This document shows, in pieces, positions 2,478 to 24,204 of a stretch of DNA of 25,985 nt. This DNA is from a virus (lineage: Duplodnaviria; Caudoviricetes). The stretch lies in IMG/VR virus record IMGVR_UViG_3300025277_001773, positions 1 to 25,985 of that record, one strand, 5' to 3'. Position numbers and translations under genes: made by a program. Under the pieces are notes generated by a model. The model saw only the letters and a program-made list of their open reading frames with translations, ran no database searches and was not told the origin of the DNA. Each line of letters begins with the position of its first letter. Within the stretch, counting starts at the first letter, position 1.

Positions 2478-2551
2478 GCCCTCGTAGCTCAAACGGATAG
2501 AGCAACGGTCTTCTAAACCGTAGGCTGCTGGTTCGAGTCCAGCCGAGGGTA
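2478..2551 (+). tRNA. tRNA-Arg (anticodon UCU), CCA not encoded
   Basis: Acceptor GCCCTCG/CGAGGGT, D-arm TAGCTCAAACGGATAGAGC, anticodon stem ACGGT/ACCGT with loop CT-TCT-AA (TCT 2512-2514), T-loop GGTTCGAGTCC; followed by CTA, not CCA. Confidence 0.96.
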
Positions 2552-2571
2552 CTAATATATAGGAGGAAAAA

Positions 2572-2991
2572 ATGCCAGCGAGAAGAGATAGCAGCAAAAG
2601 GTTGATAGTAGATTGCGATGGGGTTATAGCGGACAAAGACCACGGCGGCATATATGCAAACGCTGGGCCTTTACAGCACGGCATAGACCAAGTAAATAAA
2701 CTATATGATATGGGCTTTGAAATTGTTCTCTTCACCGCACGGTATGGCGACAGGGAGAACGGAAACATGCATAGACAATACGAGAGAGGATACATTGAAT
2801 GGGTAAATTGGTTGGAAGAACACGGTGTTAAGTACCACCATGCTTACATGGGCAAGCTCGCCGGTGTTTTGTATATTGACGACAAGGCGGCAAGAGTTGA
2901 AAGCGATAACGAAGATGGGTGGGGTCAGGTATGGAAAGAGATAGAGGATTTGGAAGGTAGAGACAGATACGGTCGGAAGATTATGTCATGA
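2572..2991 (+). CDS. capless HAD-family phosphatase (EcbF/BcbF capsule-biosynthesis-phosphatase-like)
   Basis: Motif I VDCDGVI, motif II FTAR, motif III GK, motif IV YIDDK; strong AGGAGG RBS. Confidence 0.85.
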   Translation: MPARRDSSKRLIVDCDGVIADKDHGGIYANAGPLQHGIDQVNKLYDMGFEIVLFTARYGDRENGNMHRQYERGYIEWVNWLEEHGVKYHHAYMGKLAGVLYIDDKAARVESDNEDGWGQVWKEIEDLEGRDRYGRKIMS

Positions 2992-3488
2992 AACTAGACC
3001 ATATTGCATACCGAGTGAAGAACAGGCATGAGGCGGCTCAGTTTTTCCGCCTCATGTTTAATTATGAGATTGGTACAGAGTTTGACATAGAGTTTGATGA
3101 TGGTTCCAAGGCTGATTGCCATGTTCTTGTGCCGCCAATGAGTCCTGTTATTATGGTTCGTGAAGGGCCAGAAATTTTTATCTCCGATGGCAGTCCCGGC
3201 TCGATTGTGGGAGACTGGGTTGAAGCGCGAAATGGAGTTGGCGGTATACACCACATGGCGTACAGGACAAATAAGATAGACCAGATTTTTGAAAACTGGA
3301 AGGAACAAGGTATAGGATTTTTGACAGACGGTATAATTGACTGCCCAGACGACAATCTTCGACAAATCTTTACCAAGCCGCTGGATTATTTGGGTGGAAT
3401 AATCATAGAGCTAATCGAGCGGGGGGCTAAGGGCTTCTGCCAGAATTCAGTAAAGAATCTTATGGAATCTACTAGGGATTTAAAATGA
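2988..3488 (+). CDS. VOC-superfamily protein resembling the isolated C-terminal catalytic domain of 4-hydroxyphenylpyruvate dioxygenase
   Basis: LDHIAY, GIHHMAY, LRQIFTKP and IELIERGAKGF parallel the HPPD His/His/Glu triad and LLQIFT motif; ATGA overlap. Confidence 0.8.
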   Translation: MKLDHIAYRVKNRHEAAQFFRLMFNYEIGTEFDIEFDDGSKADCHVLVPPMSPVIMVREGPEIFISDGSPGSIVGDWVEARNGVGGIHHMAYRTNKIDQIFENWKEQGIGFLTDGIIDCPDDNLRQIFTKPLDYLGGIIIELIERGAKGFCQNSVKNLMESTRDLK

Positions 3489-4987
3489 CAACCTATCAAA
3501 TCGTTCAGGGCAAACACTATGTTAATGGTCAGTTTGTTTCTCCAGACCCGATATCTTTTAGTTATTTCGATAGCAAGAACCCTGCTACTGGAGAAATCCT
3601 TGGGTCTTTCCCAGAAGCTAACGCTCCGCAGGTAGAGAGCGTATATCATTCGGCCAGAGATTCTTTTTCGGGCTGGAGAGAATACAGCCGGATAGAAAGA
3701 GCAGAGTATTTTCTAAACCTAGCCGGTTTGGTCGAAGAACGACGAGAAGAAATCGCTAGAGTTATTAGTCTGGAAACAGGCAAGGTCTATAACGAATCCA
3801 TTGCAGAAGTAAATGAAGCTCTGCACATGGCCCAATATGCTTTTAGCACAGGAAGAATGCCTTATGGAGAAGCAATCGCATCTGAACTATCTGAAAAAGA
3901 CGCTTACATGCTTCGCAAGCCGAAGGGTGTGGTCGCAATTATTGCTCCTTTTAACTTTCCTTTTGCTATTGGCGGCTTCTGGTGTGCCGCACCTGCTCTG
4001 GTAGAAGGCAATACTGTAATACTTAAACCAAGCGAAGATGTTCCTTGGGTTGGTGAACTAACAGCCGAACTGTATCATGACGCTGGCTTTCCTCCGGGCG
4101 TATTTAATATGATTCAAGGAGACGGAAGGGTTGGCAATGGTCTTATTCAACAGGATGTAGACCACGTTTGTTTTACCGGAAGCGCAGAAGTTGGGATGCA
4201 CGTTCGTAAAACCTGTGCAGAAAGCTGGCACAAGACCTGTTCATGCGAGATGGGAAGTAAATCGGCGGTAATTATTCATGAAGATGCGAATTATGACATG
4301 GCGATGGCCGCATGCTTGGCCAGCGCTTACAAACTATCTGGTCAACGCTGTGTGTCTGCTGGCAGGTTGATTGTTCACAGGAGTCTGTATAATAAATTTG
4401 CAGACGAGTTTGCCAACAGGAGTGGAGACCTTATAACAGGAGACCCGTTTGATGAGAGCGTTTTTTATGGCTCTTTAATCAATGAAAAACAGTTAGAGAA
4501 AGTTATGGAATTCAACAAAATGGTTGAGGATGACCCAGAGGCAGATGTTCTGCTCATGGGAACTAGATGCCATTCGGATGGACTATTTTTAACACCTACT
4601 GTATACCAGACGGAGTGGAGAGATGTACCCTATCTTAAACAAGAAGTATTCGGGCCTCATGTGGCAATCATTCCTTATGATACAGTGCATGACGCTATTC
4701 GGATTTACAATGACACTGACTATGGACTTGCTCTTGGGGTAGTAACGGAAAACTTTAAAGTTGCTAGAAGAATTCGTAACGAGTGCGACTTTGGTCTTGG
4801 CTACTGGAATGGAGGCAGCATTGCTGCTGAGAGTCACCTTGGATTCGGAGGGGTAAAGAAGTCTGGAAACGGACAGCCAAGCGCCGCTCGTACATTCAGG
4901 TCTGTTACTCACGAAGTTTCTTGGACTGTTAATCATGGAGATTCACTAAACTTTCCGCAAGGTATGACGACGGGAACTGATGAATGA
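3485..4987 (+). CDS. NAD(P)-dependent aldehyde dehydrogenase (probable semialdehyde dehydrogenase)
   Basis: APFNFP, LKPSE, FTGS, CEMGSK (catalytic Glu), SGQRC (catalytic Cys), EVFGP, FGGVKKSG. Confidence 0.95.
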   Translation: MTTYQIVQGKHYVNGQFVSPDPISFSYFDSKNPATGEILGSFPEANAPQVESVYHSARDSFSGWREYSRIERAEYFLNLAGLVEERREEIARVISLETGKVYNESIAEVNEALHMAQYAFSTGRMPYGEAIASELSEKDAYMLRKPKGVVAIIAPFNFPFAIGGFWCAAPALVEGNTVILKPSEDVPWVGELTAELYHDAGFPPGVFNMIQGDGRVGNGLIQQDVDHVCFTGSAEVGMHVRKTCAESWHKTCSCEMGSKSAVIIHEDANYDMAMAACLASAYKLSGQRCVSAGRLIVHRSLYNKFADEFANRSGDLITGDPFDESVFYGSLINEKQLEKVMEFNKMVEDDPEADVLLMGTRCHSDGLFLTPTVYQTEWRDVPYLKQEVFGPHVAIIPYDTVHDAIRIYNDTDYGLALGVVTENFKVARRIRNECDFGLGYWNGGSIAAESHLGFGGVKKSGNGQPSAARTFRSVTHEVSWTVNHGDSLNFPQGMTTGTDE

Positions 4988-5786
4988 GATTCTAGTATGC
5001 AATCCAAGATATTTCGACATCAGTTATGAAATTAATTCTTGGATGCGTATAGACAATGGTACAAACCCACAAAAAGCTAGTAAACAGTGGTTGAGCCTTT
5101 GCAACAAGCTGGTAGAATCTGGGGCAAAGCTGCATTATATAGAACCTCATCCTAATTTCCCAGACATGGTGTTTACGGCCAACGCCGGTCTCGTACATAA
5201 AAAAACTAAAACTGTAATCCTATCCAATTTTAAACACAAAGAGAGACAGGGAGAAAAACAGCTATTCAAAGAATGGTTTTTGAAAAACAGCTATAGAGTA
5301 ATTGAGCTTCCAGAAAGCATCTGTTTTGAGGGAGAGGGTGACGCCTTATTTTTAGGCGACACCCTTTTTCTTGGTTATGGTTTTCGTACCGACCGAGCGG
5401 CGCATAAGATTATTGCGGACGTTTTAAACGTGAACTATGTGTCGTGTGAATTAATCAACCCCCATTTTTATCACTTAGATACCTGTTTTATGCCGATGAA
5501 TGATAGAGTTGTTTATTTTAAAGATGCGTTTTCTGACTACTCTCAAATGACAATGATTGACGAGTTCATAAAAATTGGAACCAAAAGAGGCAGACTTGAC
5601 ATTCTCAACGTCCACGACGACCAAGCCGATGAGTTTATTTGTAACAGTGTTAACGTGAAAAGTTCAGTTATAACCCCTTCAGAGAATAGTCACCTATCTT
5701 TTGCTGGATACAAACAGCAAGTGTGCGACTTATCTGAATTCATAAAATCTGGGGGAGCAGCTAAATGCCTGACTCTCAAGTTATAG
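4980..5786 (+). CDS. pentein-fold guanidino-modifying enzyme (DDAH/amidinotransferase family; ArgZ/AgrE N-terminal arginine-dihydrolase-like)
   Basis: ILVCNPRYFDISYEINSWM, PDMVFTANAG, FEGEGD, YHLDTC, KSGGAAKCLT (Asp/His/Cys catalytic set). Confidence 0.9.
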   Translation: MNEILVCNPRYFDISYEINSWMRIDNGTNPQKASKQWLSLCNKLVESGAKLHYIEPHPNFPDMVFTANAGLVHKKTKTVILSNFKHKERQGEKQLFKEWFLKNSYRVIELPESICFEGEGDALFLGDTLFLGYGFRTDRAAHKIIADVLNVNYVSCELINPHFYHLDTCFMPMNDRVVYFKDAFSDYSQMTMIDEFIKIGTKRGRLDILNVHDDQADEFICNSVNVKSSVITPSENSHLSFAGYKQQVCDLSEFIKSGGAAKCLTLKL

Positions 5787-6973
5787 AAACGTTAAGAGAA
5801 AACATATTGGTTGACGGCTTTCATATAGTCGTAGACCAAACACGTAGTCTGGGTTCTTATGTGGTCGATTTAAATACGGGTAAGAGATATCTAGACTGCT
5901 ATTCACAATTTGCAAGCCAGCCCCTTGGCTGGAAGCACTCAGCGTTGATTAAAGCCCAAGCAGAAATGGGCTATGCTGGCAGGGTAAAACTGGCTAATAG
6001 CGATATGTATTCAGAGGAATATGCAGATTTTGTAGAAAAGTTCTCTGAGATTACCCCCGATTTTAAGCACTACTTTTTTATTGAGGGCGGCGCCTTGGGC
6101 GTAGAGAATGCTTTAAAGGCTGCTTTTGATTGGAAGGCTAAAAAACTAAAATATACTCATACGGTTGACATTAATAACCTAGATATATTCCATCTTAAGA
6201 ATGCTTTTCATGGCAGGACGGGCTACACACTCTCTTTAACCAACACGACCCCAGAGAAGACCGCGCTGTTTCCAAAGTTTAGGTGGACGACAGTAGAACC
6301 TGATTGGGAAGATATTGAACGCCGCATTCACGAAGAGGTGGCCGCAATTATCGTAGAGCCAATACAAGGAGAAGGCGGCGACAACCATTTTCCGCTAGAG
6401 TTTTTTACAAACCTACGACGGATAGCTGACGAACGCGACTGCCTTCTTATATTCGATGAAGTACAAACGGGCTTGGGCTTGACCGGCAAGATGTGGACAT
6501 ATGAACACTTTGATATTGTGCCGGATATGATGTGCTTTGGTAAAAAGACTCAGGTCTGCGGATTTTGCTCCACCGATAGAATCGACGAGGTAGAAGATAA
6601 TGTCTTCAACACTAGCGGTAGGATTAATTCTACTTGGGGTGGCAATATTGTGGATATGGTTAGATTCAGATACATAATAGATGCAATTCAAAAGGAAAAA
6701 CTTGTAGACAACGCTCACCATATTGGTTCGCACCTGTTGTGGTGTTTAAGAACTATCAGAGAGTTAGACAACGTGAGGGGCAGAGGGCTAATGATAGCCT
6801 TTGACTTACCAAGTTCAGAACTTCGTGACAGGATGGTTGAATTACTACAAGAAAATATGATAGTCCTTAAGTGTGGTAGTCGTTCGATTAGGCTTAGACC
6901 ACCCCTGACATTTTCCGCCGAAGAAGCGGACGCAGCGTGTCGATATATACGAGAGGCGGTAGGAAAACTATGA
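5765..6973 (+). CDS. lat: L-lysine 6-transaminase-like class III PLP aminotransferase
   Basis: FFIEGGALGVENALKAAFDWK, AFHGRTGY, EPIQGEGGDNH, FDEVQTG, FGKK (PLP Lys), RINSTWGGNIVDMVR, typical of the Lat subfamily. Confidence 0.88.
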   Translation: MPDSQVIETLRENILVDGFHIVVDQTRSLGSYVVDLNTGKRYLDCYSQFASQPLGWKHSALIKAQAEMGYAGRVKLANSDMYSEEYADFVEKFSEITPDFKHYFFIEGGALGVENALKAAFDWKAKKLKYTHTVDINNLDIFHLKNAFHGRTGYTLSLTNTTPEKTALFPKFRWTTVEPDWEDIERRIHEEVAAIIVEPIQGEGGDNHFPLEFFTNLRRIADERDCLLIFDEVQTGLGLTGKMWTYEHFDIVPDMMCFGKKTQVCGFCSTDRIDEVEDNVFNTSGRINSTWGGNIVDMVRFRYIIDAIQKEKLVDNAHHIGSHLLWCLRTIRELDNVRGRGLMIAFDLPSSELRDRMVELLQENMIVLKCGSRSIRLRPPLTFSAEEADAACRYIREAVGKL

Positions 6974-7812
6974 AAATTCAAACCGTTGGAATAATAGGGC
7001 AGGGATTCGTGGGCGGTGCTCTGAAACACGTATTTTCCAAACATTATAAAGTACACGCCTACGACAAGATGCTTAAAGATTTGTCCACACACAAAAGCGT
7101 GCATGATTTGTCCAGAGCGTGTGATATAATCTTTGTTTGTGTTCCGACACCCATGAAACAAGATGGTTCTTGTGACGTATCAATAGTCAAGAATGTTGTT
7201 CAGGAAGCTTGCAGCACGGGTAGAAAAAATATCGTGGCAATAAAGTCCACCGTGCCACCCAACACAACAAAAGCTCTTCAAGCTCTTTGTCAGGACTCTC
7301 AAATTGTTTTCAATCCCGAGTTTCTTTTAGAAAGAAACGCTGAAGATGACTTTGAGCAGACAAAAAGAGTTATTCTTGGAGGCCCGCGCCCAGCAACAAC
7401 TAGGCTAAAGCAATTCTATTCGCGGATATTCCCCGGTGCAGACATAATAAAGACAGACTCTACTATAGCTGAAATGGTAAAGTATTTAACCAATTCTTTT
7501 TTAGCTGTCAAGGTCTCTTTTGCAAATGAGATATACAATATATGCGAAAGCTTGAATATAGATTACGACAAGGTGGTCGAATACTCACTGTATGACGAAA
7601 GGCTCGGCCAAAGTCACTGGGCTGTTCCCGGCCCGGACGGTCACTATGGCTTTGGGGGAAGCTGTTTTCCTAAAGATATAAACGCCCTAATGCATCTAGC
7701 CCAAGTTCTTTGTATAAAAGCCAACACGATAGAGGGGGCTTGGAATACTAATCTTATGTCTAGACCAGAAAAAGACTGGGAAGAACTTAGAGGGAGGGCG
7801 GTCAGTGAATAA
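6970..7812 (+). CDS. ugd: UDP-glucose/GDP-mannose dehydrogenase family protein, short form
   Basis: GIIGQGFVG Rossmann motif, VCVPTP, KSTVPP, NPEFL, AEMVKY, GGSCFPKD. Start moved to ATG 6970 (ATGA overlap). Confidence 0.9.
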   Translation: MKIQTVGIIGQGFVGGALKHVFSKHYKVHAYDKMLKDLSTHKSVHDLSRACDIIFVCVPTPMKQDGSCDVSIVKNVVQEACSTGRKNIVAIKSTVPPNTTKALQALCQDSQIVFNPEFLLERNAEDDFEQTKRVILGGPRPATTRLKQFYSRIFPGADIIKTDSTIAEMVKYLTNSFLAVKVSFANEIYNICESLNIDYDKVVEYSLYDERLGQSHWAVPGPDGHYGFGGSCFPKDINALMHLAQVLCIKANTIEGAWNTNLMSRPEKDWEELRGRAVSE

Positions 7813-8055: not shown

Positions 8056-8520
8056 ATGCCTACTAGCCAACAAGAAGCATTCAGTATTGTTGAGATACTA
8101 GATGAATACTTAGATGAAGGCCAAGCTAGAGAACTGACGGCTAGGTTAGAACAAGAGATTGGACAAAAGACTGATAACGATTCACTTAAAGTCAGTCTTG
8201 AGATGTTAAAGGCTTTGTATTCCAAGAAGCCAAAAAGGATAGACTACGCAAAAAAGGGTCTTTTGTATTCTATAATTTTGTTCCACCACTTTGTGATACT
8301 TGTTAATATCGCTGCATTTTTTATATTGCCGTTCCTGTATCCTCTCTGGGTCTGGATGCCTCTTAATAGTTTTATACTAACTGTGACATTTACCAGAGAA
8401 ATATGCCCTCTAACCAAACTAGAAAACTATCTCAGAACATCACTGGGGATGTCCAGAATCGGTGGATTTATAGGACACTATTTCGTTAAACCCGTGAAGA
8501 AGATTTTGAATAGAAAATGA
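8056..8520 (+). CDS. membrane protein with C-terminal DUF2784-like domain
   Basis: Two hydrophobic segments followed by CPLTKLENYLR...GFIGHY; GGAGGT RBS. Confidence 0.65.
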   Translation: MPTSQQEAFSIVEILDEYLDEGQARELTARLEQEIGQKTDNDSLKVSLEMLKALYSKKPKRIDYAKKGLLYSIILFHHFVILVNIAAFFILPFLYPLWVWMPLNSFILTVTFTREICPLTKLENYLRTSLGMSRIGGFIGHYFVKPVKKILNRK

Positions 8521-9410
8521 ATGTCTTCAAAGACTATGTTTCTACTTTTCCAGAAGCCTTATACCCTTGCAAAGAAGGGACCGTTAGGTACTATAACAAC
8601 GTAACAATTCTTGGAAAACAAAAAGCCGCGCAATCTTCTGTCATCATATGCGGTATATGTAGGGACGCTGAGAGCAATCTCAAATTTAATATCCCCAGAA
8701 TGGAACGTATAGGGGAAATGTTTAAAGACTATAAAGTCGTAGTCTACGAAAACGATTCTAAGGATTTGACCAAAGATATATTGGAAACGTGGGGAAAAGC
8801 TAACCACAGGGTTACTTTAATAATGGAAGACCTTGGCGACAAGAAGTTTGGAAGCGTGGCTTCTTTTGAAAGAGCGAAAGCTCTCGCCGCCTGTAGAAAT
8901 AAGTATCTAAAGCTGATAAACGAAACTCTAGATTCTGATTACGTTATCATGCTAGACATGGATATACAAGGGGGGTGGAGCTACGAGGGAATTTGCAATA
9001 GTCTGGGGCATACTGATTGGGATATGATTGGCTCTAATGGAATACTGTACGGACCCGTTGATGAAAACAACAATATGATAAAGGAAGGCGACACTATCGG
9101 AAGGGTTTACTACGACACTTATGCATTTAGAAGAGTAAATCATCCAGAGCCTCACTCAAGCCAAGAAATCAATCAACTGTTTTATGGCAGAGGAGAACCC
9201 CTCATTAGAGTCTGGTCCTGCTTTGGTGGCTTTGGTTTATATAAAAGAAATGCTATAAGAGATATTTGGTACGGTTCTCGAAAGCCAGACTCGGCTGCTT
9301 GTGAGCATGTCTATTTTCATCAAGCGATGGCCCAAAATGGCTTTGATAGAATTTACCTAAACCCCAGCCAGATAACCCTGTATTCACCCGTATCGTATAC
9401 GGATATATAA
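8517..9410 (+). CDS. GT-A fold glycosyltransferase (CAP59-like/GT2-like)
   Basis: GICRD, VYENDSKD, ACRNKYL, DMD (DxD), SCFGGFGLY, CEHVYFH. Confidence 0.78.
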   Translation: MNVFKDYVSTFPEALYPCKEGTVRYYNNVTILGKQKAAQSSVIICGICRDAESNLKFNIPRMERIGEMFKDYKVVVYENDSKDLTKDILETWGKANHRVTLIMEDLGDKKFGSVASFERAKALAACRNKYLKLINETLDSDYVIMLDMDIQGGWSYEGICNSLGHTDWDMIGSNGILYGPVDENNNMIKEGDTIGRVYYDTYAFRRVNHPEPHSSQEINQLFYGRGEPLIRVWSCFGGFGLYKRNAIRDIWYGSRKPDSAACEHVYFHQAMAQNGFDRIYLNPSQITLYSPVSYTDI

Positions 9411-9412
9411 AT

Positions 9413-11131
9413 ATGTTGGAATCATTGTCAACAGGGTGGTATGACTTGGAGTTTGATGGAATTAGAGATTTTCGCTGGTCTTCTAATAGCTCTATAGTTC
9501 TCCTAGATAGCACCAAAAATACACTTAGGCTTTTTATGGGAACCGACAATCCAGACAGGATAGTCAGGTTTGCATATAACGATGGAAAGTCTTACGAAAT
9601 ACCAGCCAAAATGGGCTGGCTGTATTATTGTGTGCCATACAATGGTCAGAGTGAATTAGTAATAGAAACGGAACCATTCACGCCCAAAAATGACACAAGA
9701 AAACTTGGAATGATGGTGTCTGAATTGTCCTTCACGGACAATGAACACCCCAGAGATGAAGCCTATTACGCCACAACTTTTTCTGTGCCAGAGCTAAAGT
9801 CTCGCTATATCGACATAGTCTATCAACTTAGCGAGCCTAACGTGTCCAAAATTTTAATCAAAGATGTTGACTCTGATGAAGAAAATGAGTTCAGCATCAT
9901 GAATGGCGGCGATAGACTAATATGCTACGAAACAAACTCAGAAACAAGTTGCAATTTTGAAATTCACACCGATTGTAACACTGATATTTCTATAAGAAGT
10001 GTTATTAATAGAAATGACTATCATGACTATCTAGGTCTGACAAAACATTCAGAAGAAAAAGCACATTGGAAATATTGCGAATTACAGGAAAAGGATGAAC
10101 TTAGCATCCAATGGTTTTTAACATGGAAGTGCAACTATACTTGCGGCTATTGTTGGCAGGAAGTCTCCAAGGAGCTATACAGATATGGTAAGTGGGAGAG
10201 AATGGACCCATCAGTTTGGGCCGATGCTTTTGACAAATTGAATCCGTATTCTTTGTATTTTACCGGAGGAGAGCCAACCTTATATAAGCATCTTCCAGAT
10301 TTAATCAGCATGTTGGATAAGAAAACAATCTTGACTATCACCACTAATTTTGGGCCAACATTTAACCTAAGCAAGTGGCGAGAAAAAGTTAAACCGGGAA
10401 GAATCACAGGATTCTGGGCGAGTTTTCACCCTACGCAACTGACAAATGTGGACGACTTCTTCAGAAAAACGGATGAGTACATATCCTATTATGGAAATCA
10501 TGGGTTTGGACTGGAGATGGTTCTTCATAAAGATAATATCCAACATAAAGATAGGTTTGTCGACTTTTGTCAAACAAGAGAAATAGAGTATTCAATAGAC
10601 CCGTTTGTAGCACAATATTCAGAAGATAGAGAGGGGATAACAGACACTAAAAGCTTGGTGAGTCCTGACGAAAATAACAGAGCCGAAGAAAGATACGACA
10701 GACTTCCCGTGTTACAAAACTCTGGAGTTGAAAGAGAAAGAATTTGTTCTCTTAATACAAGCGAAAAGAAAAACTACACAGAAAAAGTAATTGTCCCATC
10801 AGACCTCGGCCTCAAATTAGACAACACCACAGACGACAAAGGTAGACTCCCGGTATTCTGTCCTGCGGGAACTTCTCGGATTAATGTTGACATGGAGGGA
10901 GATGTCTATACCTGTATGAGCGCGATTGATAGAGGGAAACTGTTCAAGCCCCACTCCCTTCCTCACTATAAATCCATGGGTAATATTTTTGACGAAGACT
11001 TTAAGCTTATGACTAAACCGGTCATATGCTGGGAGTCTTTTAGGTGCTCTGCGTGTGACTTTGAAATGGTTGATTATTATTGGGAACCTATCAACAAGAA
11101 CTTCAACTACCAATTACCTATACCTGAATAA
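9413..11131 (+). CDS. radical SAM enzyme with long N-terminal extension and Cys-rich SPASM/Twitch-like C-terminus
   Basis: CNYTCGYC (CxxxCxxC), FTGGEPT, ITTN; C-terminal CPAG...GDVYTC...GNI...C...C..C. Confidence 0.92.
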   Translation: MLESLSTGWYDLEFDGIRDFRWSSNSSIVLLDSTKNTLRLFMGTDNPDRIVRFAYNDGKSYEIPAKMGWLYYCVPYNGQSELVIETEPFTPKNDTRKLGMMVSELSFTDNEHPRDEAYYATTFSVPELKSRYIDIVYQLSEPNVSKILIKDVDSDEENEFSIMNGGDRLICYETNSETSCNFEIHTDCNTDISIRSVINRNDYHDYLGLTKHSEEKAHWKYCELQEKDELSIQWFLTWKCNYTCGYCWQEVSKELYRYGKWERMDPSVWADAFDKLNPYSLYFTGGEPTLYKHLPDLISMLDKKTILTITTNFGPTFNLSKWREKVKPGRITGFWASFHPTQLTNVDDFFRKTDEYISYYGNHGFGLEMVLHKDNIQHKDRFVDFCQTREIEYSIDPFVAQYSEDREGITDTKSLVSPDENNRAEERYDRLPVLQNSGVERERICSLNTSEKKNYTEKVIVPSDLGLKLDNTTDDKGRLPVFCPAGTSRINVDMEGDVYTCMSAIDRGKLFKPHSLPHYKSMGNIFDEDFKLMTKPVICWESFRCSACDFEMVDYYWEPINKNFNYQLPIPE

Positions 11132-11132
11132 A

Positions 11133-11933
11133 ATGATAGACTTAGACGCCCTTTTCTGGTATCACACCTTCTTTCTCAATGATAGAGAGCATGTGTTTAA
11201 TAGAAACCTTTCTAATAGGGTTTTACAGGGCGAGTGGTGTCACAACGCCGAGATTGACCACTTTATCGAGCATATGAAAGAGGTTGGCTCTGGTACTCTT
11301 CTGGACATTGGCACTAACGACGGTTATTTTTCTCTACTTTTTGATAAGCTAGGGGCGCGTTCATTTACTACCGATGCTTGTGACCGAACTACGCGAAGAG
11401 CAATACACGAATTTCTTGGCAAAGAAGACCGATTTATCCACACCAATTTGTATCAACTCGATAAGCTGGGCGGGGTATACGATTACATATGGTGTCAAGA
11501 CGTTATATGTCACTTAGAACACCCCCTTCTAGCGTTTAGAACTTTCAGGAAAATATGCACTAAAAAGATATTTCTGGGAGTTGATAGATTTACGTGTGAC
11601 GATGTGGATTTTGAATTTTACGCTGACTGGAATGTTGGCCCATCAAAGATGTGTGTATATACAAACTATGATTACACATACGTATTTACAGAAGATTTTC
11701 TAAAAGAAACACTCACGGATTGTGGGTTTATGAATCCAAGGATAAAGTTTTCTTACACATCTACTGGTCAGAACAATATGTCAGATTGCGGAACTAGAGT
11801 CATTGATGTTTATGAAGCAGAGGTCAACCCAGACGAACGAGAGGATTCTTGGTGGAAAACACTGGACTGGACAACCACCGAGCCTTGGCCGGATGATGAC
11901 AATCCTTCACCCAACCCAATGCCCCATGGATAG
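11133..11933 (+). CDS. class I SAM-dependent methyltransferase
   Basis: LLDIGTNDGYFS (motif I), YDYIWCQDVICHLEHP. Start moved to ATG 11133. Confidence 0.82.
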   Translation: MIDLDALFWYHTFFLNDREHVFNRNLSNRVLQGEWCHNAEIDHFIEHMKEVGSGTLLDIGTNDGYFSLLFDKLGARSFTTDACDRTTRRAIHEFLGKEDRFIHTNLYQLDKLGGVYDYIWCQDVICHLEHPLLAFRTFRKICTKKIFLGVDRFTCDDVDFEFYADWNVGPSKMCVYTNYDYTYVFTEDFLKETLTDCGFMNPRIKFSYTSTGQNNMSDCGTRVIDVYEAEVNPDEREDSWWKTLDWTTTEPWPDDDNPSPNPMPHG

Positions 11934-11977
11934 GGTATAATCTTACAAAGGCGCTCTACACAAAAAGGCAAGGAACC

Positions 11978-12946
11978 ATGCAAGTATCAAGAGAAGATAT
12001 CATAGAAGTCAAGTCTTGGATGAACATGTTCGATGTGAACTACGAGGTAGATTGGAAGGACGAGGACGACATTCCACCCGCAGGGGTTGTGTACTGCAAC
12101 ATGGAGTGGATACCCGCATTTTTTGAAAAATGTGAGAAGACGGATAATGAATATGTGGTTGTTAGCGGGTTTAGTGATTTTGGGCTTGCTTTACAAGAAG
12201 AGCATCCGGTGTCGGTTGACATCATCAAGCACTTTCCCTCCCTGCATAATCAGCTACACGAAGCAGGATATTCATTTTTGACAATCCCTCCTCGCTGTAG
12301 GCCAGAGTTGTGTGATATACGACATAAGTATTCTATAAAAATCGATACCTTTACATCAGAAACTATGTCGAAGATACCAAGCAATATCAAGAAATGGTAT
12401 CTATCAAACACGATGGTGCAAGAAGAAAATATTATAGGACTCCCTTTTGGTGTGAATCAGGGTGCTTCCGAAATTATCCCGACAATCAAAAGATATGATT
12501 TTGAAGACAAGGAAAATCTTGCGTATGTAAATTGGCAAAACTATACAGACGAACGATGGAGACTTAAGTCACAGCTTGTCGCTAGAGAATTTCCTTGGAT
12601 AACGGCTAGAGAAACTCCAGAGCTTGAGGTTGAAGAATTTTTTGATGAAATCGCACGACACGTTTATGTTTTCTGCCCGCAGGGGAACGGCGTTGATACT
12701 TATCGATTTTGGGAAACTTTATATCTAGGCTCAATACCTATAGTTAAAGATTGTCCCCTCATAAGATATTTTTCAGGACTCCCCATGCTGGTAATCAACC
12801 AGTGGCAGGACATAACCCCCGGTCTTCTTAAGGAACAGTACGAGACATATTTTTCTAAAGAAAACCTATTCAGTTTTGATAAAGCTAAACTTTCTTATTG
12901 GAAAGAGCTAATAAAATCTGGCGTTGTGGAGGAGGCTGTGGTATGA
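11978..12946 (+). CDS. exostosin-like (GT47-type) glycosyltransferase
   Basis: FCPQGNGVDTYRFWETLYLGSIPIV signature; AAGGA RBS. Confidence 0.82.
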   Translation: MQVSREDIIEVKSWMNMFDVNYEVDWKDEDDIPPAGVVYCNMEWIPAFFEKCEKTDNEYVVVSGFSDFGLALQEEHPVSVDIIKHFPSLHNQLHEAGYSFLTIPPRCRPELCDIRHKYSIKIDTFTSETMSKIPSNIKKWYLSNTMVQEENIIGLPFGVNQGASEIIPTIKRYDFEDKENLAYVNWQNYTDERWRLKSQLVAREFPWITARETPELEVEEFFDEIARHVYVFCPQGNGVDTYRFWETLYLGSIPIVKDCPLIRYFSGLPMLVINQWQDITPGLLKEQYETYFSKENLFSFDKAKLSYWKELIKSGVVEEAVV

Positions 12947-14016
12947 ATTTCAATATTATATCTCCGATAAATCAGTTAGGATATGGTGTTGCCGGTGGCA
13001 ATATAGTCAAAGCCCTATCAGAACTGGAGAACTTAGTTTCCTTGTGGGCTATAGGAAGACCAGAATGGCCAAACGAACAAGACCATGAGCTTCTGACCAC
13101 ATGCTTCCACTATGCTGATATGCCTAATTTTGATGCGCCGTGTATTAGAATTTGGCATCAAAACGATATGTCACAATTCGTTGGTCGTGGACCCAAAATA
13201 GGCTTCCCTATATTTGAGTTGAATAGATTTAATGAGAAAGAAGCTTATCATCTTTCTAATGTAGACAAATTGTTTGTTTGTTCTAAATGGGCTAAGAATA
13301 TTGTTGTGGAAAATGTAAAAATAAATCCTGACAACGTACACGTTATCCCGCTTGGGGTTGACCGCACAATATTTTTTCCCGTCGCTGGGGGCAGAAAAGA
13401 AACGATATTTTTCAATTGTGGTAAATGGGAAATAAGAAAAGGTCACGATATTCTTTGCGAGGCTTTTGACAGAGCTTTTGGTCCAGAAGACGACGTAGAG
13501 CTTTGGATGATGTGTGCAAATCCATTCTACGAGCAGCAAGAAAACTACGACTGGGAAAGAAAATATAAAACCTCGAAGATGGGCAACAAAGTCAAAATGA
13601 TTCCAAAACAGAAAAGTCAAGATTCTGTTGCCGACATTATGAGGTCTGCCGACTGTGGGGTTTTCCCCGCCAGAGCAGAGGGGTGGAACCTAGAGCTTTT
13701 AGAGATGATGTCTTGTGGAAAACATGTCATAGCCACAAACTACTCTGGCCACACAGAATTTTGTGATAACGATAATTGTATGCTGGTAGAAACAAGCGTT
13801 CTTGAAGAGGCTCATGATGGGAAGTGGTTTAATGGAGAGGGGGAATGGGCGCAGATTGGCGACAAACAAATTGATTTGATTGCCTCTTATATGCGAGATG
13901 TTCATATGCTTAAACAAGGTGGTCACTTAGAAGAGAATACCAGTGGAATAGAAACAGCTAAAAGATTTTCTTGGGAGAACTCAGCGAAACAAATTATGGG
14001 CATTGAATATGTCTAG
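12943..14016 (+). CDS. GT-B (GT4) glycosyltransferase
   Basis: VIPLGVD, GKWEIRKG, FPARAEGWNLELLEMMSCG (EX7E), FSWE. Start moved to ATG 12943 (GGAGG RBS, ATGA overlap). Confidence 0.92.
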   Translation: MNFNIISPINQLGYGVAGGNIVKALSELENLVSLWAIGRPEWPNEQDHELLTTCFHYADMPNFDAPCIRIWHQNDMSQFVGRGPKIGFPIFELNRFNEKEAYHLSNVDKLFVCSKWAKNIVVENVKINPDNVHVIPLGVDRTIFFPVAGGRKETIFFNCGKWEIRKGHDILCEAFDRAFGPEDDVELWMMCANPFYEQQENYDWERKYKTSKMGNKVKMIPKQKSQDSVADIMRSADCGVFPARAEGWNLELLEMMSCGKHVIATNYSGHTEFCDNDNCMLVETSVLEEAHDGKWFNGEGEWAQIGDKQIDLIASYMRDVHMLKQGGHLEENTSGIETAKRFSWENSAKQIMGIEYV

Positions 14017-14860
14017 AGTAAATGTACATAAGTACCTTTCTCGTATAAATGAAGATGGCTTGCTTGTCTTTTCCCAAGACGGCTTGGAGAGAGTAGACGA
14101 TAGATTTAAACGATGGGATATAAATAGGTCGATAACAGCAGAGTATGGAGAGGCCGTAGACAAAGCGATTGAGAACGAATGGGACTTTCAGAATTTTAAA
14201 AACAACCCAAAATATGCCAGTATCGTGGGGATGTGCGACGACTTTCAGTCTAGGATTTGGCTAGAAAGAATAGAAAAAGAGTTTCCCGAAATACTAAGCA
14301 AAATAGAACAATTCAAGAAGAATGACACTATTGGAAATCCTCCCCTTTGGCACTCTGGCAAACACGGAATGATTTCTCCAGATACGCTGCATAGGATAAA
14401 TACGCTCTGTGATGTTAAAAAATATTTTGGTGACCTAAATGGTAAAAATGTAGTCGAAATTGGTGTAGGATATGGTGGACTTTGCTTTGTTTTATCTTCC
14501 TTCTACAATATCAACTCATATGAGTTGGTTGATTTAGAAAATGTAGTTGGTTTGTCCAAAAAGTATTTGTCAGCATTGGGTGTTGAAGTTGCTTCTTGCG
14601 AAACAGAAAGTTTTGACTTAACAATTAGTGAGTTTTGTATCGCTGAACTAGACAACAAAGGGATATCTGATTATTTTCAGCGCTACATACAAAAGTCAAA
14701 AGCTATCTATCTTATGATGAATCCAGCACCACTCAAATGGCCTAAAAAAAGGCTAAATGATTTTCATGACCTGTTGAGCGAAGATTTTGTAATTGAAATT
14801 CACGAAGAATTTCCTAAGATGATTGATTCGAACTATCTTATAGTCGGATATAAAAAATAA
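14009..14860 (+). CDS. putative sugar O-methyltransferase
   Basis: NDTIGNP...ISPDTL...VVEIGVGYGG...YELVDL; glycosyltransferase context. Confidence 0.75.
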   Translation: MSRVNVHKYLSRINEDGLLVFSQDGLERVDDRFKRWDINRSITAEYGEAVDKAIENEWDFQNFKNNPKYASIVGMCDDFQSRIWLERIEKEFPEILSKIEQFKKNDTIGNPPLWHSGKHGMISPDTLHRINTLCDVKKYFGDLNGKNVVEIGVGYGGLCFVLSSFYNINSYELVDLENVVGLSKKYLSALGVEVASCETESFDLTISEFCIAELDNKGISDYFQRYIQKSKAIYLMMNPAPLKWPKKRLNDFHDLLSEDFVIEIHEEFPKMIDSNYLIVGYKK

Positions 14861-20283: not shown

Positions 20284-20351
20284 TTTATAATAATCAGGAT
20301 TTGTAACAAGGACTTTCTGACGGTTAATGCCCCATGGAAAGGTCCAATATA

Positions 20352-22352
20352 ATGAAAAAATTACTATTTGCTATCGCCCTTGCTCTGGGGTGCATGATAA
20401 ACACGGCAGATGCTCAGCCATTAACAATGGATGAAGCTCTAGACGCTGTGTGTAGAGTAAATACAAACGGTGCTCGCGGAAGTGGAACCGTATTCCAAGA
20501 AGATGAAGATAAATACTACGTACTGACCAACGGTCATGTAATTGAAAGAGCTAAGAGAGGCCATTTAGAGTTTTTTCAAGATGGCTACAAGTCTGCTATG
20601 ATTCCTTTTAAAACTGAATACGTAGCTTACGAAGAAGGCACTGCTCTTGACCTAGCTATAGTCTCAGTAAAAAAGAAATATTTTGGCCGATATCCCCCCA
20701 GAGTAATCCCCCTAGCCCCCAAGGGCACGAAAATTGGGGCGAATGACCTTGTTATGGCTGGCGGGTGTCCTTCTGCCCAATGGGCCTGTATTTGGAAGGG
20801 CAGAGTTCTTAGTAACACAGGAGCCGTTGTTAGCTTTAATGCGGCTCCTATCGGTGGACAATCTGGTAGCGGTGTTCTCATTCTTGTTAAAGATGACAAG
20901 AACGAACTTCAAACCCGCCTTGGAATCCTTCTTGCTTGGAGGGTAGGTGATGGGGCTTGGACAGATGACGGAGAAGACGACTATGGCGCTGGTCTATCCC
21001 TAAAGCAGATATATGATATAATGGAGGGCAATGGCAGAGGCTATCCCATTGAGACCTCTTATGGCTTAGTGCATGAAAAGGAAAAAGCAAAAAATACTAA
21101 GTCCGCAGAAGAAAGATTGGGTAAAGTCTGCCCGCACTGTGGTCATAAAATTAAAGACCATGTGGTTATTCCCTATAAGGGAGGTCTCAGGAAGACCGTC
21201 AAGGGCGAGTTTATGTTTTGCCCTGAACTGAAGATGAGCGATGGTAGCGTTGCAGATACGGCAAAATATTATGGAGGCATAAGAGTTGGTGAGTTATACG
21301 AAGGAAACGGCCTGTTTCCTTGGTGTCCTTGGGATAGATGCCCCCCTCCCAATCAACCACCTGTGTTACCTCCCTCCAACCCAAACCCACCAGACGGTGG
21401 CGGCGGTTTTAATGGCTGGCCCGGCAGACCAGACCCCGGTGGTCCTGTAGACCCTCCTGTGGACTTTGAGAAGGAGCGACAGGAGTACCTCGACAAGATT
21501 ACCGAGCTTCAAGAAAAGCTGACTAATTTAGAGGGTCTTTCCGAAAGTCTCAAGGCAGAATTGTCTGGAGTTAGTGGGAATCTGTCAGGTGCTAATAACG
21601 AAATCAATGGACTGAAAGATTTGCTTGGTGCTGTTGAGGGTCAGAAACTAACCCTTAAGTCTAGAATCGATGAGCTTTTAGGCTTTGTTAGCGGCAAAGA
21701 CAAGTTGATAGATGAATTGAAAGAAGGGGGCTTGCATTATCTAGATGGAGCTACTGGTGGTAATGGCAATACTGTTGAAAATGTAAGCTTTACCCTTGGC
21801 GGCATGAGCTTGGGAATGCTGGCGTTAAAATACGGAGTTCCGTTGTTACTTAACAGAAGGCGAAGAAAAAAGAAAAAGGGTGAAGATAATGAAGATTTAG
21901 ATAGAGAAGAAGGGTATGATAATAGGGGGCCTTCACATCCTCCAAGCTTGGACAGTGGTACAAAAGAGCACGTTCATCGACATGAGCATATTCATAAGCA
22001 TAAGCACGAAAATGAATATATAATGTCTCCTAATGAATGCCCTCAACCACAAACAAGCAATGAAATTGACGGTTCGCAGACAGGACAAGCTGGACCCAAT
22101 TCTGGATTCGCTGGATATGGGATGCCTGTAAACGTGGCAACTCCGTATTATCAACACCCACAACCGGTTCATGGACTACCCCCAGAGTTTATTAACATAC
22201 CGTTTAGCACTAGAAAAGCGCTAACATCAGAGCAGATTATGACGGTTATTGGCGAACTGACTAATGAGTATAGAGATGACCAAACCATGACAATGGGGCA
22301 GCTTGATATACTTATCCGTCAGCGACTAAAAGAAAAATTTAACGTAGAATAA
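20352..22352 (+). CDS. exported, membrane-anchored trypsin-like (S1) serine protease, multidomain
   Basis: Signal peptide MKKLLFAIALALG..ADA; LTNGHV / DLAIV / GGQSGSG triad; CPHC, Pro-rich linker, coiled coil, hydrophobic segment + RRRRKKKK, HxH repeat. Start moved to ATG 20352. Confidence 0.85.
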   Translation: MKKLLFAIALALGCMINTADAQPLTMDEALDAVCRVNTNGARGSGTVFQEDEDKYYVLTNGHVIERAKRGHLEFFQDGYKSAMIPFKTEYVAYEEGTALDLAIVSVKKKYFGRYPPRVIPLAPKGTKIGANDLVMAGGCPSAQWACIWKGRVLSNTGAVVSFNAAPIGGQSGSGVLILVKDDKNELQTRLGILLAWRVGDGAWTDDGEDDYGAGLSLKQIYDIMEGNGRGYPIETSYGLVHEKEKAKNTKSAEERLGKVCPHCGHKIKDHVVIPYKGGLRKTVKGEFMFCPELKMSDGSVADTAKYYGGIRVGELYEGNGLFPWCPWDRCPPPNQPPVLPPSNPNPPDGGGGFNGWPGRPDPGGPVDPPVDFEKERQEYLDKITELQEKLTNLEGLSESLKAELSGVSGNLSGANNEINGLKDLLGAVEGQKLTLKSRIDELLGFVSGKDKLIDELKEGGLHYLDGATGGNGNTVENVSFTLGGMSLGMLALKYGVPLLLNRRRRKKKKGEDNEDLDREEGYDNRGPSHPPSLDSGTKEHVHRHEHIHKHKHENEYIMSPNECPQPQTSNEIDGSQTGQAGPNSGFAGYGMPVNVATPYYQHPQPVHGLPPEFINIPFSTRKALTSEQIMTVIGELTNEYRDDQTMTMGQLDILIRQRLKEKFNVE

Positions 22353-22364
22353 GGAGTTCCTTAA

Positions 22365-23162
22365 ATGTCAGATAATTTAATCATCCCTACCCACGATGCA
22401 ATTCTCCCTTACATGTTCAAGGGTGTAAAGTGGGCTATCCCCAACGTAGGGGACAACAAAGAAACCATGAACCTCGCCTTAGCTCGCCTGTTTGAAAAGG
22501 TTGGCGAACACCTACAGGCATTTTCGGTTCGTACCGACTGTTTCGTTCCCGGCCCTCCGACGCTTGGCGCGGTGAAGCATCATCACAACATGTTTGTCCG
22601 TTTGTGCAATCTGATTGACACAAACACCAAGAGAGACAACATGGAAAGACTTGAAGCTCATCACATCAGTCACGAGAGACGGGCCTTTAAGCTTTATCCA
22701 ATTCGTTACTTCGATGTGAAGAACGACTACTGCCGTAGATGGATTGAGCTATGTCTTCAGGGTCTCAGCAATATTGCCCAGCTAAGTGAAAACACTTGGG
22801 GCAACGATTGGTCAGAACCTACGGCTCAGGAAATGAAGAAGCTCTTCCGCGAAGGCTACAGGCTTATGTGCGTAGAGCTATTCAGAGTTCCTGTCGCAAC
22901 AGCCGAGAAGGTCTTTACCGAGGGAGAAGACGGCTTCTTCTTGACCGCCGAAGACTTCAGTGTTTATGACGTTAGTCATATTCCCACCATTGAATGGATT
23001 AAGCATCCAGCCCTTGGTAGTGAATTTACTGAAGACGAACTTCGTCCGATTGCAACCAATAATGTTCCGGTTGCTCCCGGCGTAGAAGACAACGACCCCA
23101 ATTCACCTAACCGCGTACTCGAAAGAGAGTTGCAGGGTAATGGTGGAGAGGTTATTGAGTAG
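22365..23162 (+). CDS. hypothetical protein, probably highly expressed
   Basis: TAAGGAG RBS; followed by a strong terminator; no family recognised. Confidence 0.8.
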   Translation: MSDNLIIPTHDAILPYMFKGVKWAIPNVGDNKETMNLALARLFEKVGEHLQAFSVRTDCFVPGPPTLGAVKHHHNMFVRLCNLIDTNTKRDNMERLEAHHISHERRAFKLYPIRYFDVKNDYCRRWIELCLQGLSNIAQLSENTWGNDWSEPTAQEMKKLFREGYRLMCVELFRVPVATAEKVFTEGEDGFFLTAEDFSVYDVSHIPTIEWIKHPALGSEFTEDELRPIATNNVPVAPGVEDNDPNSPNRVLERELQGNGGEVIE

Positions 23163-23175
23163 ACAACTTTTTTTG

Positions 23176-23203
23176 GATGGCCCCGCTTTGGGGCCATCTT
23201 TTT
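23176..23203 (+). terminator. intrinsic terminator
   Basis: GATGGCCCC-gcttt-GGGGCCATC perfect 9-bp stem followed by TTTTT. Confidence 0.9.
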
Positions 23204-23226
23204 ATACCTACAGGAAGGATTCTCTT

Positions 23227-24204
23227 ATGAAATTTCTAATCGCTTTAATGGCCGCTGCCGTTTTGTCCCTGCCCGCACATATTTCAGCAGAAAATAAGTC
23301 TGTGAAAGAGGTCTCTCGGCTTTTACAAGAGGTCTCTGTGACAGTTAAGAGCGGGGGCGGTGAGGGTTCTGGAGTAATTATTACACGAACTATTCCCCTT
23401 ACCACGAACCCCACAGGCAAACCGCTAACAGCGAAGGTAAATTTTATCTGGACGGCAGCACATGTAATCGACAATTTAAGGTCTGTTAGAACAGTAATCA
23501 AGAATGGTAGAACAACCAAGATTGTTGAATTTAAGGATGCTCAAATCGTTCAGGAGCTAGTCGAAGATGGCCGTCGCGTTGGCGAGGTCAAGATGGAAGC
23601 CAAGGTTATTAAATATAGCGACTCTGAAAACGGAGAAGACCTAGCTCTTCTGATGGTTAGGAAGAAGGGCTTTATTGACCAATCTGTAACTTTCTATAAT
23701 GATACGGGTAAGCCGGTATCTATTGGTACTGAGTTATATCACGTTGGAAGTTTACTCGGACAAACTGGCTCGAATAGCCTGACGAGGGGTATAATATCTC
23801 AGATAGGAAGAGTTCTTGACTTGGGTACTGGTGATGGTGTAGTCTTTGACCAAACGACTGTCACAGCATTTCCGGGTTCCAGTGGAGGCGGTGTTTTTCT
23901 GTCGGAGAGGTCGGGAAAGAATGCAGGACAGTATGTTGGAATGCTGGTCAGAGGCGCTGGAGAGACTTTCAATCTTATAGTACCCGTCAGACGCATCAGG
24001 GAATATGCAAAGAAGGAGGGAATTCTATGGGCGGTTGACGAAATGGCGCCTACCCCTACGTTAAAGGAGGTTCTGTCTTTACCGATAGAAGGAGGGGGGG
24101 CCAAGCCAAGTGAAGGAACCAAGCTCACAAAGGATTCTGTGAAGTTTCCAACACTGATAGAATATAATTCTCAAAGAGGTAACAACGATGCTAAACATAA
24201 GTAA
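23227..24204 (+). CDS. secreted trypsin-like (S1) serine protease
   Basis: Signal peptide MKFLIALMAAAVLSLPA; GSGV, TAAHV, DLALL, PGSSGGG. Start moved to ATG 23227 because the tracked start crosses the terminator. Confidence 0.88.
   Translation: MKFLIALMAAAVLSLPAHISAENKSVKEVSRLLQEVSVTVKSGGGEGSGVIITRTIPLTTNPTGKPLTAKVNFIWTAAHVIDNLRSVRTVIKNGRTTKIVEFKDAQIVQELVEDGRRVGEVKMEAKVIKYSDSENGEDLALLMVRKKGFIDQSVTFYNDTGKPVSIGTELYHVGSLLGQTGSNSLTRGIISQIGRVLDLGTGDGVVFDQTTVTAFPGSSGGGVFLSERSGKNAGQYVGMLVRGAGETFNLIVPVRRIREYAKKEGILWAVDEMAPTPTLKEVLSLPIEGGGAKPSEGTKLTKDSVKFPTLIEYNSQRGNNDAKHK

Follow-up and report, generated by a model that had tools for sequence, protein, structure and literature searches.

The window analysed here is a whole virus record, a contig of 25,985 bases (IMGVR_UViG_3300025277_001773; Caudoviricetes; our record G000). 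It carries a run of overlapping genes that is predicted to encode a route for the breakdown of arginine, ornithine and probably lysine. The genes encode a small HAD-fold phosphatase (HAD), a VOC-fold protein (VOC), an aldehyde dehydrogenase (ALDH), a pentein-fold guanidino enzyme (pentein) and a class III aminotransferase of the lysine epsilon-aminotransferase family (Lat). A sixth gene follows directly. The features of the locus are:

2478-2552, plus strand: tRNA-Arg(UCU), called by ARAGORN
2560-2571, plus strand: Shine-Dalgarno-like AGGAGG ahead of the HAD start, read from the sequence
2572-2991, plus strand: HAD, intact open reading frame (ORF)
2988-3488, plus strand: VOC, intact ORF
3485-4987, plus strand: ALDH, intact ORF
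4980-5786, plus strand: pentein, intact ORF
5765-6973, plus strand: Lat, intact ORF
6970-7812, plus strand: UDP-glucose/GDP-mannose dehydrogenase-like gene (UGD), matching PF03721 and PF00984 only

The initial annotation described five head-to-tail overlapping ORFs behind one strong ribosome-binding site (RBS), with all catalytic motifs kept. All five ORFs are intact, with overlaps of 4 nt (HAD/VOC), 4 nt (VOC/ALDH), 8 nt (ALDH/pentein) and 22 nt (pentein/Lat), and the UGD-like gene overlaps the end of Lat by a further 4 nt. Profile searches upheld the five family assignments, and the catalytic motifs were present in the alignments of HAD, VOC, ALDH, pentein and Lat. AGGAGG does precede HAD; it is not the only possible RBS because purine-rich stretches also lie upstream of ALDH, Lat and the UGD-like gene. 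Values of dN/dS, calculated against two close relatives, were 0.04-0.11 for HAD, ALDH, pentein, Lat and UGD, and dS for VOC was saturated in the same comparison. Matching DNA was found in 20 runs from 17 studies of marine, seawater, hydrothermal-vent and aquatic viral metagenomes (four of these rows may be the source of the record). Contigs from four other runs bridge tRNA-HAD-VOC-ALDH, ALDH-pentein and pentein-Lat-UGD, none of them covering the whole stretch. No RNA dataset with this DNA was listed among the matching runs, and a promoter and terminator scan returned 17 sites, where 12.1 ± 3.3 are expected by chance.

The cassette is real and viral. Although the 26-kb window itself contains no virion gene, viral origin, which was to be checked by way of a terminase, was confirmed through a syntenic relative. 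This genome (G001; 161 kb, CheckV 100%) matches 24 of the 35 window ORFs, has the six-gene run in the same order, and encodes TerL, a tape measure protein, a tail fibre and rIIA/B (106 of 174 ORFs scanned). It also has a DUF1501 gene, which presumably points to Planctomycetota or kin as host. A cellular origin of the cassette was rejected, as VOC was present in 0 of 80 GTDB Lat loci; the only one of these 80 with a pentein (L119) is a 3.7-kb phage-like contig. A search of 301 Acidobacteriota genomes, which did not extend to Planctomycetota and Verrucomicrobiota, gave no VOC match at E ≤ 1e-15, and plasmids gave none either. Note that the phage-like contigs L119, L120, L121 and L295 are binned inside bacterial metagenome-assembled genomes (Dehalococcoidia, Acidobacteriaceae, Chloracidobacterium) and could pass for cellular copies.

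The pentein is predicted to be an arginine dihydrolase of the ArgZ/AgrE type, converting arginine to ornithine, CO2 and two NH3. Structure-sequence searching matched it to the cyanobacterial ArgZ protein Sll1336 with an E-value of 4e-57 and to DDAH with 1e-5. It is accordingly of the ArgZ type and of neither the DDAH nor the GATM type, the other two classes named for comparison in the initial annotation. The best family, NF052232, scored 242.8 bits, below its curated cut-off of 450. In the alignment the Cys-His-Glu triad, the Asn of DMVFTAN and the arginine-binding residues are identical to those of Sll1336, and N19, W21, D62, N68, R89, E117, R136, H165, D167 and C263 are invariant in 20/20 sequences. 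We take these active-site residues to have the roles assigned to them in characterised enzymes of this type.

Lat is a class III omega-aminotransferase that is predicted to act on both ornithine and lysine. It is closest to a lysine epsilon-aminotransferase (PDB 2cin; E 1e-111), ahead of GABA aminotransferase (2e-45) and ornithine aminotransferase (4e-36). Its TIGR03251 score of 479.5 bits lies under the cut-off of 520.8, and the next family scored 216.6. An internal deletion of about 24 aa is common to all 21 cassette copies that were compared. K260, R151, E203, N288-T290 and R378, which we take to be the pyridoxal phosphate lysine, the substrate arginine, the glutamate switch, the N-S-T loop and the second arginine, are kept in 21/21 cassette copies and 71/71 cellular Lats. 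F49 was considered as a marker for ornithine and rejected because cellular Lats have F, Y or V at this site, whichever ALDH is their partner. Many related loci have, with or without Lat, a gene of the saccharopine dehydrogenase fold. The best PDB match of this gene is 3abi (PH1688; E 2e-22), which we take to be a Pyrococcus lysine 6-dehydrogenase (LysDH). Such loci have bacterial counterparts, Lat and LysDH being presented in PMC9854754 as alternative routes to 1-piperideine-6-carboxylate (P6C).

ALDH forms a phage-wide clade and is the hub of the module. From its relatives we predict it to be a dehydrogenase of 1-pyrroline-5-carboxylate (P5C)/glutamate semialdehyde and also of P6C. It matches PF00171, and C289, E255 and N157 are invariant. 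Its closest annotated cellular relatives are haloarchaeal ALDHs (41-42% identity), and all four of those opened adjoin a proline dehydrogenase (ProDH) gene, two of them also lying near a Na/proline symporter. With a phage ALDH profile, the haloarchaeal proteins scored 531-536 bits, four cellular Lat-adjacent ALDHs 383-395, Pcd 265-272, AstD 272 and RocA 255. The haloarchaeal ProDH-linked ALDHs were recovered as the sister clade of the phage ALDH (SH-aLRT 99), and the two have the motifs K-x-x-GQRCVS and GSK in common. Approximately unbiased (AU) tests, performed on a 24-row subset in which long branches are present, rejected grouping of the phage ALDH with Pcd (p 0.0006), with RocA (p 0.0003, one RocA row) and with the Lat-adjacent cellular ALDHs. 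The latter were rejected as the source of the phage gene by profile score and AU test together. Against the Pcd/ALDH7 family NF050084 the window protein scored 261 bits (cut-off 730) and has SIAAESH instead of the TSGAEIGG loop. Against the RocA/PutA-type families NF002852 and TIGR01237 it scored 290 and 269 bits (cut-off about 650), with GQRCVS where those enzymes have GQKCS. Identification of ALDH as Pcd, RocA or AstD, the classes named for comparison at the outset, is thus contradicted by the profile scores and, for Pcd and RocA, also by the AU tests.

Because its sister group is linked to ProDH, the position of ALDH favours the ornithine/P5C branch. The ProDH neighbour in H. volcanii, HVO_1189, is given as a predicted P5C dehydrogenase (P5CDH) in PMC6801745, and the orthology of the four haloarchaeal plasmid proteins to HVO_1189 is judged from gene order only. 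The window differs in having no ProDH, and in both groups the function is a prediction. Sister ALDHs were also sought in Acidobacteriota, where 58 of 149 genomes gave a match (two genomes left out). Within 1.5 kb on each side of 30 such loci, alanine-dehydrogenase-family genes were present in 6, and ProDH, Lat and saccharopine-dehydrogenase-family genes had no match. Among 30 phage records, ProDH was found in 5 and a gene resembling ornithine cyclodeaminase (OCD) in 7, the two standing side by side in G022 and G034; glutamate dehydrogenase was found in 4 giant phages. In every record with ProDH or an OCD-like gene, this ALDH is the only ALDH.

For conservation of the gene set in relatives, the locus counts gave a mixed answer. 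The combination ALDH-pentein-Lat is present in 21 of 38 viral Lat loci (some of the 21 cassette contigs are near-identical). A fixed five-gene unit does not exist, as roughly half of the cassette loci have no HAD and three have no VOC. The full order HAD-VOC-ALDH-pentein-Lat-UGD is found in nine of the 21; eight have VOC without HAD, three are without VOC and one is incomplete upstream. UGD follows Lat in 17 of the 21, and the 4-nt overlap between them was seen in 11/11 contiguous junctions checked. Of 80 ALDH loci, 57 have VOC within 5 kb and 55 a saccharopine-dehydrogenase-fold gene; HAD is that close in 30, pentein and UGD in 23 each and Lat in 21. For the 62 ALDH loci having at least 5 kb downstream, Lat and/or the LysDH-like gene lay within 6 kb in 61 (41 LysDH-like only, 11 Lat only, 9 both, 1 neither). 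The complete genome G001 has Lat and no LysDH-like gene. The pentein-Lat pair, mostly joined by a 22-nt overlap, occurs in three separate ALDH subclades as mapped on a first, quick ALDH tree, and the 21 best pentein loci all have ALDH and Lat.

Whole records were surveyed in the same way, using 39 large viral records chosen from matches to these same genes. ALDH was present in 28, of which 25 also had Lat and/or the LysDH-like gene, and Lat, ALDH and VOC were present in 6/6 records with a pentein. In a 381-kb giant phage (G032), VOC, ALDH, Lat, pentein and glutamate dehydrogenase lie at scattered sites. On the basis of the locus counts and this survey, the core of the family is VOC plus ALDH plus a semialdehyde-forming enzyme, the window form being one variant of it, and pentein-Lat is an add-on module that accompanies or replaces the LysDH-like gene. 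Other arrangements were also seen. A small SET-domain gene (PF00856, E 3e-6) is inserted between ALDH and pentein in L040, L044, L045 and L054, and G003 (L199, L200) has two LysDH-like copies together with Lat, pentein and an OCD-like gene. In giant phages, Lat may lie a few genes from glutamate dehydrogenase (L020:9998-15527, L022, L301:5873-9909); together the two would have the effect of a lysine/ornithine dehydrogenase. ArgZ-type penteins standing by themselves (L398-L456) occur in many unrelated large phages.

VOC is predicted from sequence and fold to be a single HPPD-type catalytic domain acting as an Fe(II) 2-oxo-acid oxygenase. The 166-aa protein has one domain, matches PF13669 and gave an AF2 model with pLDDT 89. 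Foldseek aligned this model to hydroxymandelate synthase (HMS) with TM 0.75 and to 4-hydroxyphenylpyruvate dioxygenase (HPPD) with TM 0.74; the best E-values belonged to methylmalonyl-CoA epimerases. H5, R9, H89, Q126, E141 and F150 are near-invariant. Among 150 distant representatives, counting those that cover each site, H5 is kept in 114/115, R9 in 113/115, H89 in 109/113 and E141 in 97/98. VOC retains the HPPD Gln, Glu and C-terminal helix (QIFTKP...ER.G..GF), and scored 36 bits with TIGR01263 (cut-off 277). HPPD and HMS are two-domain chains of about 350-400 aa, whereas nearly all of the 150 best VOC representatives consist of a single domain, and one match of 352 aa (P0338) has two. The window protein differs further from HPPD in residues that we take to line the aromatic pocket, which are replaced (H88, V155). 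In the comparison with methylmalonyl-CoA epimerases, which use four metal ligands and a paired catalytic Glu, HMMER aligns E62 of VOC with the epimerase Gln; the HPPD strand register (PINEP with FISDG) puts F64 there instead.

VOC was also compared with HglS (DUF1338) by Foldseek, an ESM Atlas row (HGLS cluster 0.91, rank 23) and motifs. With the two-substrate 2-oxo-acid oxygenases HglS, HMS and HPPD the window protein has in common the VOC fold and the His/His/Glu triad, and its Gln and C-terminal helix are of the HPPD type. For HglS, PMC7286885 gives the triad as His70/His226/Glu294 and describes Arg74 as the residue that binds 2-oxoadipate by its distal carboxylate. In VOC, too, an Arg stands at His+4 from the first His, the spacing of His70/Arg74. 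HglS was not among the Foldseek matches listed for the window VOC, and PF07063 (DUF1338) had no match in it or in any of the 30 phage records (0/30). Glyoxalase I has an Arg at the same position, and the HglS-like pattern is not diagnostic. Because PF07063 is unmatched and glyoxalase I has this Arg, the pattern indicates no more than a carboxylate pocket. In two unannotated public genomes of huge phages VOC has different partners: LR756504 (L328 / W01), which is without Lat or pentein, combines it with the LysDH-like gene and an ALDH of the canonical Pcd type, and LR756511 (L201 / W02) combines it with the phage ALDH and Lat. The gene set of LR756504 speaks for a 2-oxoadipate step by VOC. We nevertheless regard as tentative, at somewhat less than even chances, the proposal that VOC is an HglS-like 2-oxoadipate oxygenase that would close a lysine branch after a host transaminase.

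These observations bear on a scheme confined to lysine, in which Lat or the LysDH-like enzyme would form P6C, ALDH would oxidise it to 2-aminoadipate and VOC would convert 2-oxoadipate to 2-hydroxyglutarate. The pentein would then serve separately, in ammonia release or in conversion of homoarginine to lysine. That scheme accommodates the spacing of the VOC residues, the gene set of LR756504 and the finding that both interchangeable partners of ALDH are nearest to lysine enzymes. We consider it unlikely, since ALDH is not Pcd and its sister group adjoins ProDH, other members of this phage family have ProDH and OCD-like genes, and the pentein is welded to Lat, mostly by the 22-nt overlap, in three ALDH subclades.

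The epimerase matches of VOC raise another alternative, a loose cluster of separate auxiliary enzymes in one transcript, with VOC an epimerase and ALDH acting on the aldehyde product of a 2-oxo-acid decarboxylase. In several giant phages (L295:532-2160, L300, L305, L306, L201) a thiamine diphosphate (ThDP)-dependent indolepyruvate/phenylpyruvate-decarboxylase-like gene does lie a few genes from the same ALDH, accompanied by IF3-, GroES- and DnaJ-like genes, and there are other phages with a pentein or a Lat by itself. The pairing of ALDH with a semialdehyde-forming enzyme in 61/62 loci, the conserved gene overlaps and the HPPD C-terminal helix of VOC, which epimerases do not have, make this explanation very improbable.

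HAD is a dispensable member of the cassette. It resembles the small HAD-fold phosphatases EcbF/BcbF (TIGR01689 E 2e-13, 50 bits, below the cut-off of 162), matches phrog_1238 and has motifs I-IV (DxD 14-16, T55, K95, DD 103-104). The UGD-like gene gave no match for a C-terminal domain in the profile search. Genes of this type recur after ALDH or Lat in distant phages (window 6970-7812, L295:7896-8843, L305:7011-7979, L086, L091), and the substrate of their product may be other than a UDP-sugar. In the reading favoured below, HAD and the UGD-like gene are co-transcribed passengers. Both would be true members if the module supplied glutamate and ammonia, or an amino-acid-derived acyl group, to the adjacent glycosyltransferase cluster; the initial annotation had offered an amino-acid-derived group for the glycan cluster as its second reading. 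The capsule-phosphatase type of HAD agrees with such a role, as do the UGD-like gene that overlaps Lat in 17/21 loci and directly follows ALDH in L295 and L305 (giant phages), L086 and L091, and a GlmS gene that immediately precedes the cassette in G001 and has a homologue in that position in G004. However, no ligase or acyltransferase accompanies the module, and near ALDH only 30/80 loci have HAD and 23/80 UGD. The glycan reading is weakened, to the point of being very unlikely, because in most loci the module lies among replication genes or in other unrelated surroundings, and because its genes are dispersed in giant phages such as G032.

The reading that we favour, and consider probable, is a catabolic route in the infected cell from arginine through ornithine and glutamate semialdehyde/P5C to glutamate. 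It is preferred because ALDH is sister to ProDH-adjacent ALDHs and because related phages carry ProDH and a cyclodeaminase-like gene. The general course proposed initially, from a basic amino acid through a semialdehyde to a dicarboxylic amino acid, agrees with the ArgZ- and Lat-type matches and the placement of ALDH. The substrate of each enzyme is an inference, as are the direction in which the route runs and what the phage gains from it. After release of ornithine, CO2 and two NH3 from arginine by the pentein, Lat would transfer an amino group from ornithine to 2-oxoglutarate, giving glutamate semialdehyde/P5C and glutamate, and ALDH would oxidise P5C/glutamate semialdehyde to a second glutamate with formation of NAD(P)H. 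The net reaction would be arginine + 2-oxoglutarate + NAD(P)+ to 2 glutamate + 2 NH3 + CO2 + NAD(P)H, so that all four arginine nitrogens would be mobilised and reductant gained. Lysine is likely to pass through the same two enzymes, Lat and ALDH, via P6C to 2-aminoadipate, which is why Lat could stand in for the LysDH-like gene. VOC would take the 2-oxoadipate step after a host transaminase. In relatives without Lat, P5C would be reachable through OCD and ProDH. The products may go to nucleotide synthesis, as the initial annotation proposed for the nitrogen, to amino sugars, given the GlmS gene upstream in G001, or to energy.

Several points weigh against this reading. Activity of Lat on ornithine is taken from general background, and F49 (Val in 2cin), the only pocket site compared, does not separate the partners. 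All five window proteins score below the curated family cut-offs. For the LysDH-like gene, 3abi is the single clear PDB match, and identity to saccharopine-dehydrogenase-family genes of plasmids is under 30%. The P5CDH role of the haloarchaeal ALDHs is in turn predicted from their gene neighbourhood. The co-occurrence of ALDH with ProDH and OCD-like genes is not strong alone because ALDH is in 24/30 records, and chance would place it in all 5 ProDH records in ∼30% of cases. P5CDH could also come from the host. Incomplete sets also exist: G019 (97% complete) has ALDH without Lat or the LysDH-like gene, G006 encodes VOC and Lat but no ALDH of any kind, and in G035 VOC stands alone. Of the 80 viral pentein loci listed (one further locus was not parsed), 58 have neither Lat nor ALDH within 6 kb, and the pentein therefore does not need these partners; three of the 58 adjoin ProDH, a convergent arrangement. 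Finally, the conservation counts should not be considered independent, because the records were selected through the same genes and are mutually related.

Other features of the window lie outside the module. The tRNA-Arg(UCU) ends 19 nt ahead of the HAD start, and a tRNA-Arg is at the same place in 8/10 HAD-type loci and 0/8 other loci. As a functional part of the pathway it was rejected, ordinary codon supply being a sufficient explanation; in the window arginine is most often encoded by AGA, and the tRNA is probably outside the chemistry. It stands directly before HAD in the window, L002, L005, L009, L010 and L012-L015, and several of these phages have a tRNA-Ile(UAU) and a tmRNA call (tag AEKQ(F/Y)ALAA) nearby. 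Positions 8517-14860 hold a glycan-type cluster (glycosyltransferases, radical SAM, methyltransferase, RXYLT1-like), of which 8517-11933 is present in L005 and missing from the closer L001 and L002. An IscA-like Fe-S carrier, a deaminase-fold gene and two trypsin-like proteases are found at 2-247, 1779-2231 and 20334-24204; it is speculation that the proteases could feed free amino acids to the pathway.

Two cellular systems are closest to the module. In cyanobacteria, ArgZ (Sll1336) and AgrE (Alr4995; PDB 6juy, 6jv0, 6lrf) have the same pentein active-site residues, and the ArgZ/AgrE pathway leads from arginine through ornithine and P5C to glutamate, the overall route predicted here. In contrast to those enzymes, the window pentein is a stand-alone 268-aa domain, below the family cut-off and virus-borne, and a Lat-family transaminase and separate ALDH take the place of the fused cyclodeaminase and PutA. 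With bacterial Lat-Pcd lysine catabolism (2cin) and its LysDH variant (3abi) the module has in common an intact Lat active site and, as described for bacteria in PMC9854754, a swap between Lat and a LysDH-like gene. It differs in its ALDH, which is not Pcd, in the Lat deletion and in the linkage to an arginine enzyme. In its predicted operation the module resembles a cyanobacterial ArgZ route coupled to lysine catabolism of the Lat/LysDH kind. It is a member of neither, because no protein meets its family cut-off, ALDH belongs to another clade and VOC is half an HPPD.

As host-type metabolic enzymes in a tailed phage, these genes resemble other phage auxiliary metabolic genes (AMGs). They differ in forming a multi-step, modular amino-acid catabolic set and in that ALDH and VOC form phage-wide clades far from sampled cellular relatives. 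No description of such a phage module was found in the literature searched, which did not extend to subscription papers and supplementary AMG tables. A bolder view, which we hold to be possible and rather doubtful, is that large aquatic phages have their own ancient network for mining arginine, proline and lysine. It would have a phage-specific P5C/P6C dehydrogenase, swappable entry enzymes and glutamate and 2-oxoglutarate as endpoints, and VOC would be a new single-domain, virus-borne, two-substrate 2-oxo-acid oxygenase acting on a dicarboxylic 2-oxo acid.

Two of the enzymes are predicted to represent subfamilies not described so far: a P5C dehydrogenase of non-canonical type, which haloarchaea share, and an HPPD-like oxygenase of half the usual size. 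Phage metabolic genes have mostly been described as single boosts to host pathways. If the favoured route is correct, a widespread group of marine phages would run a whole multi-step route by which the most nitrogen-rich amino acids of the host yield ammonia, glutamate and NAD(P)H, and this would matter for how nitrogen moves during infection in the ocean.

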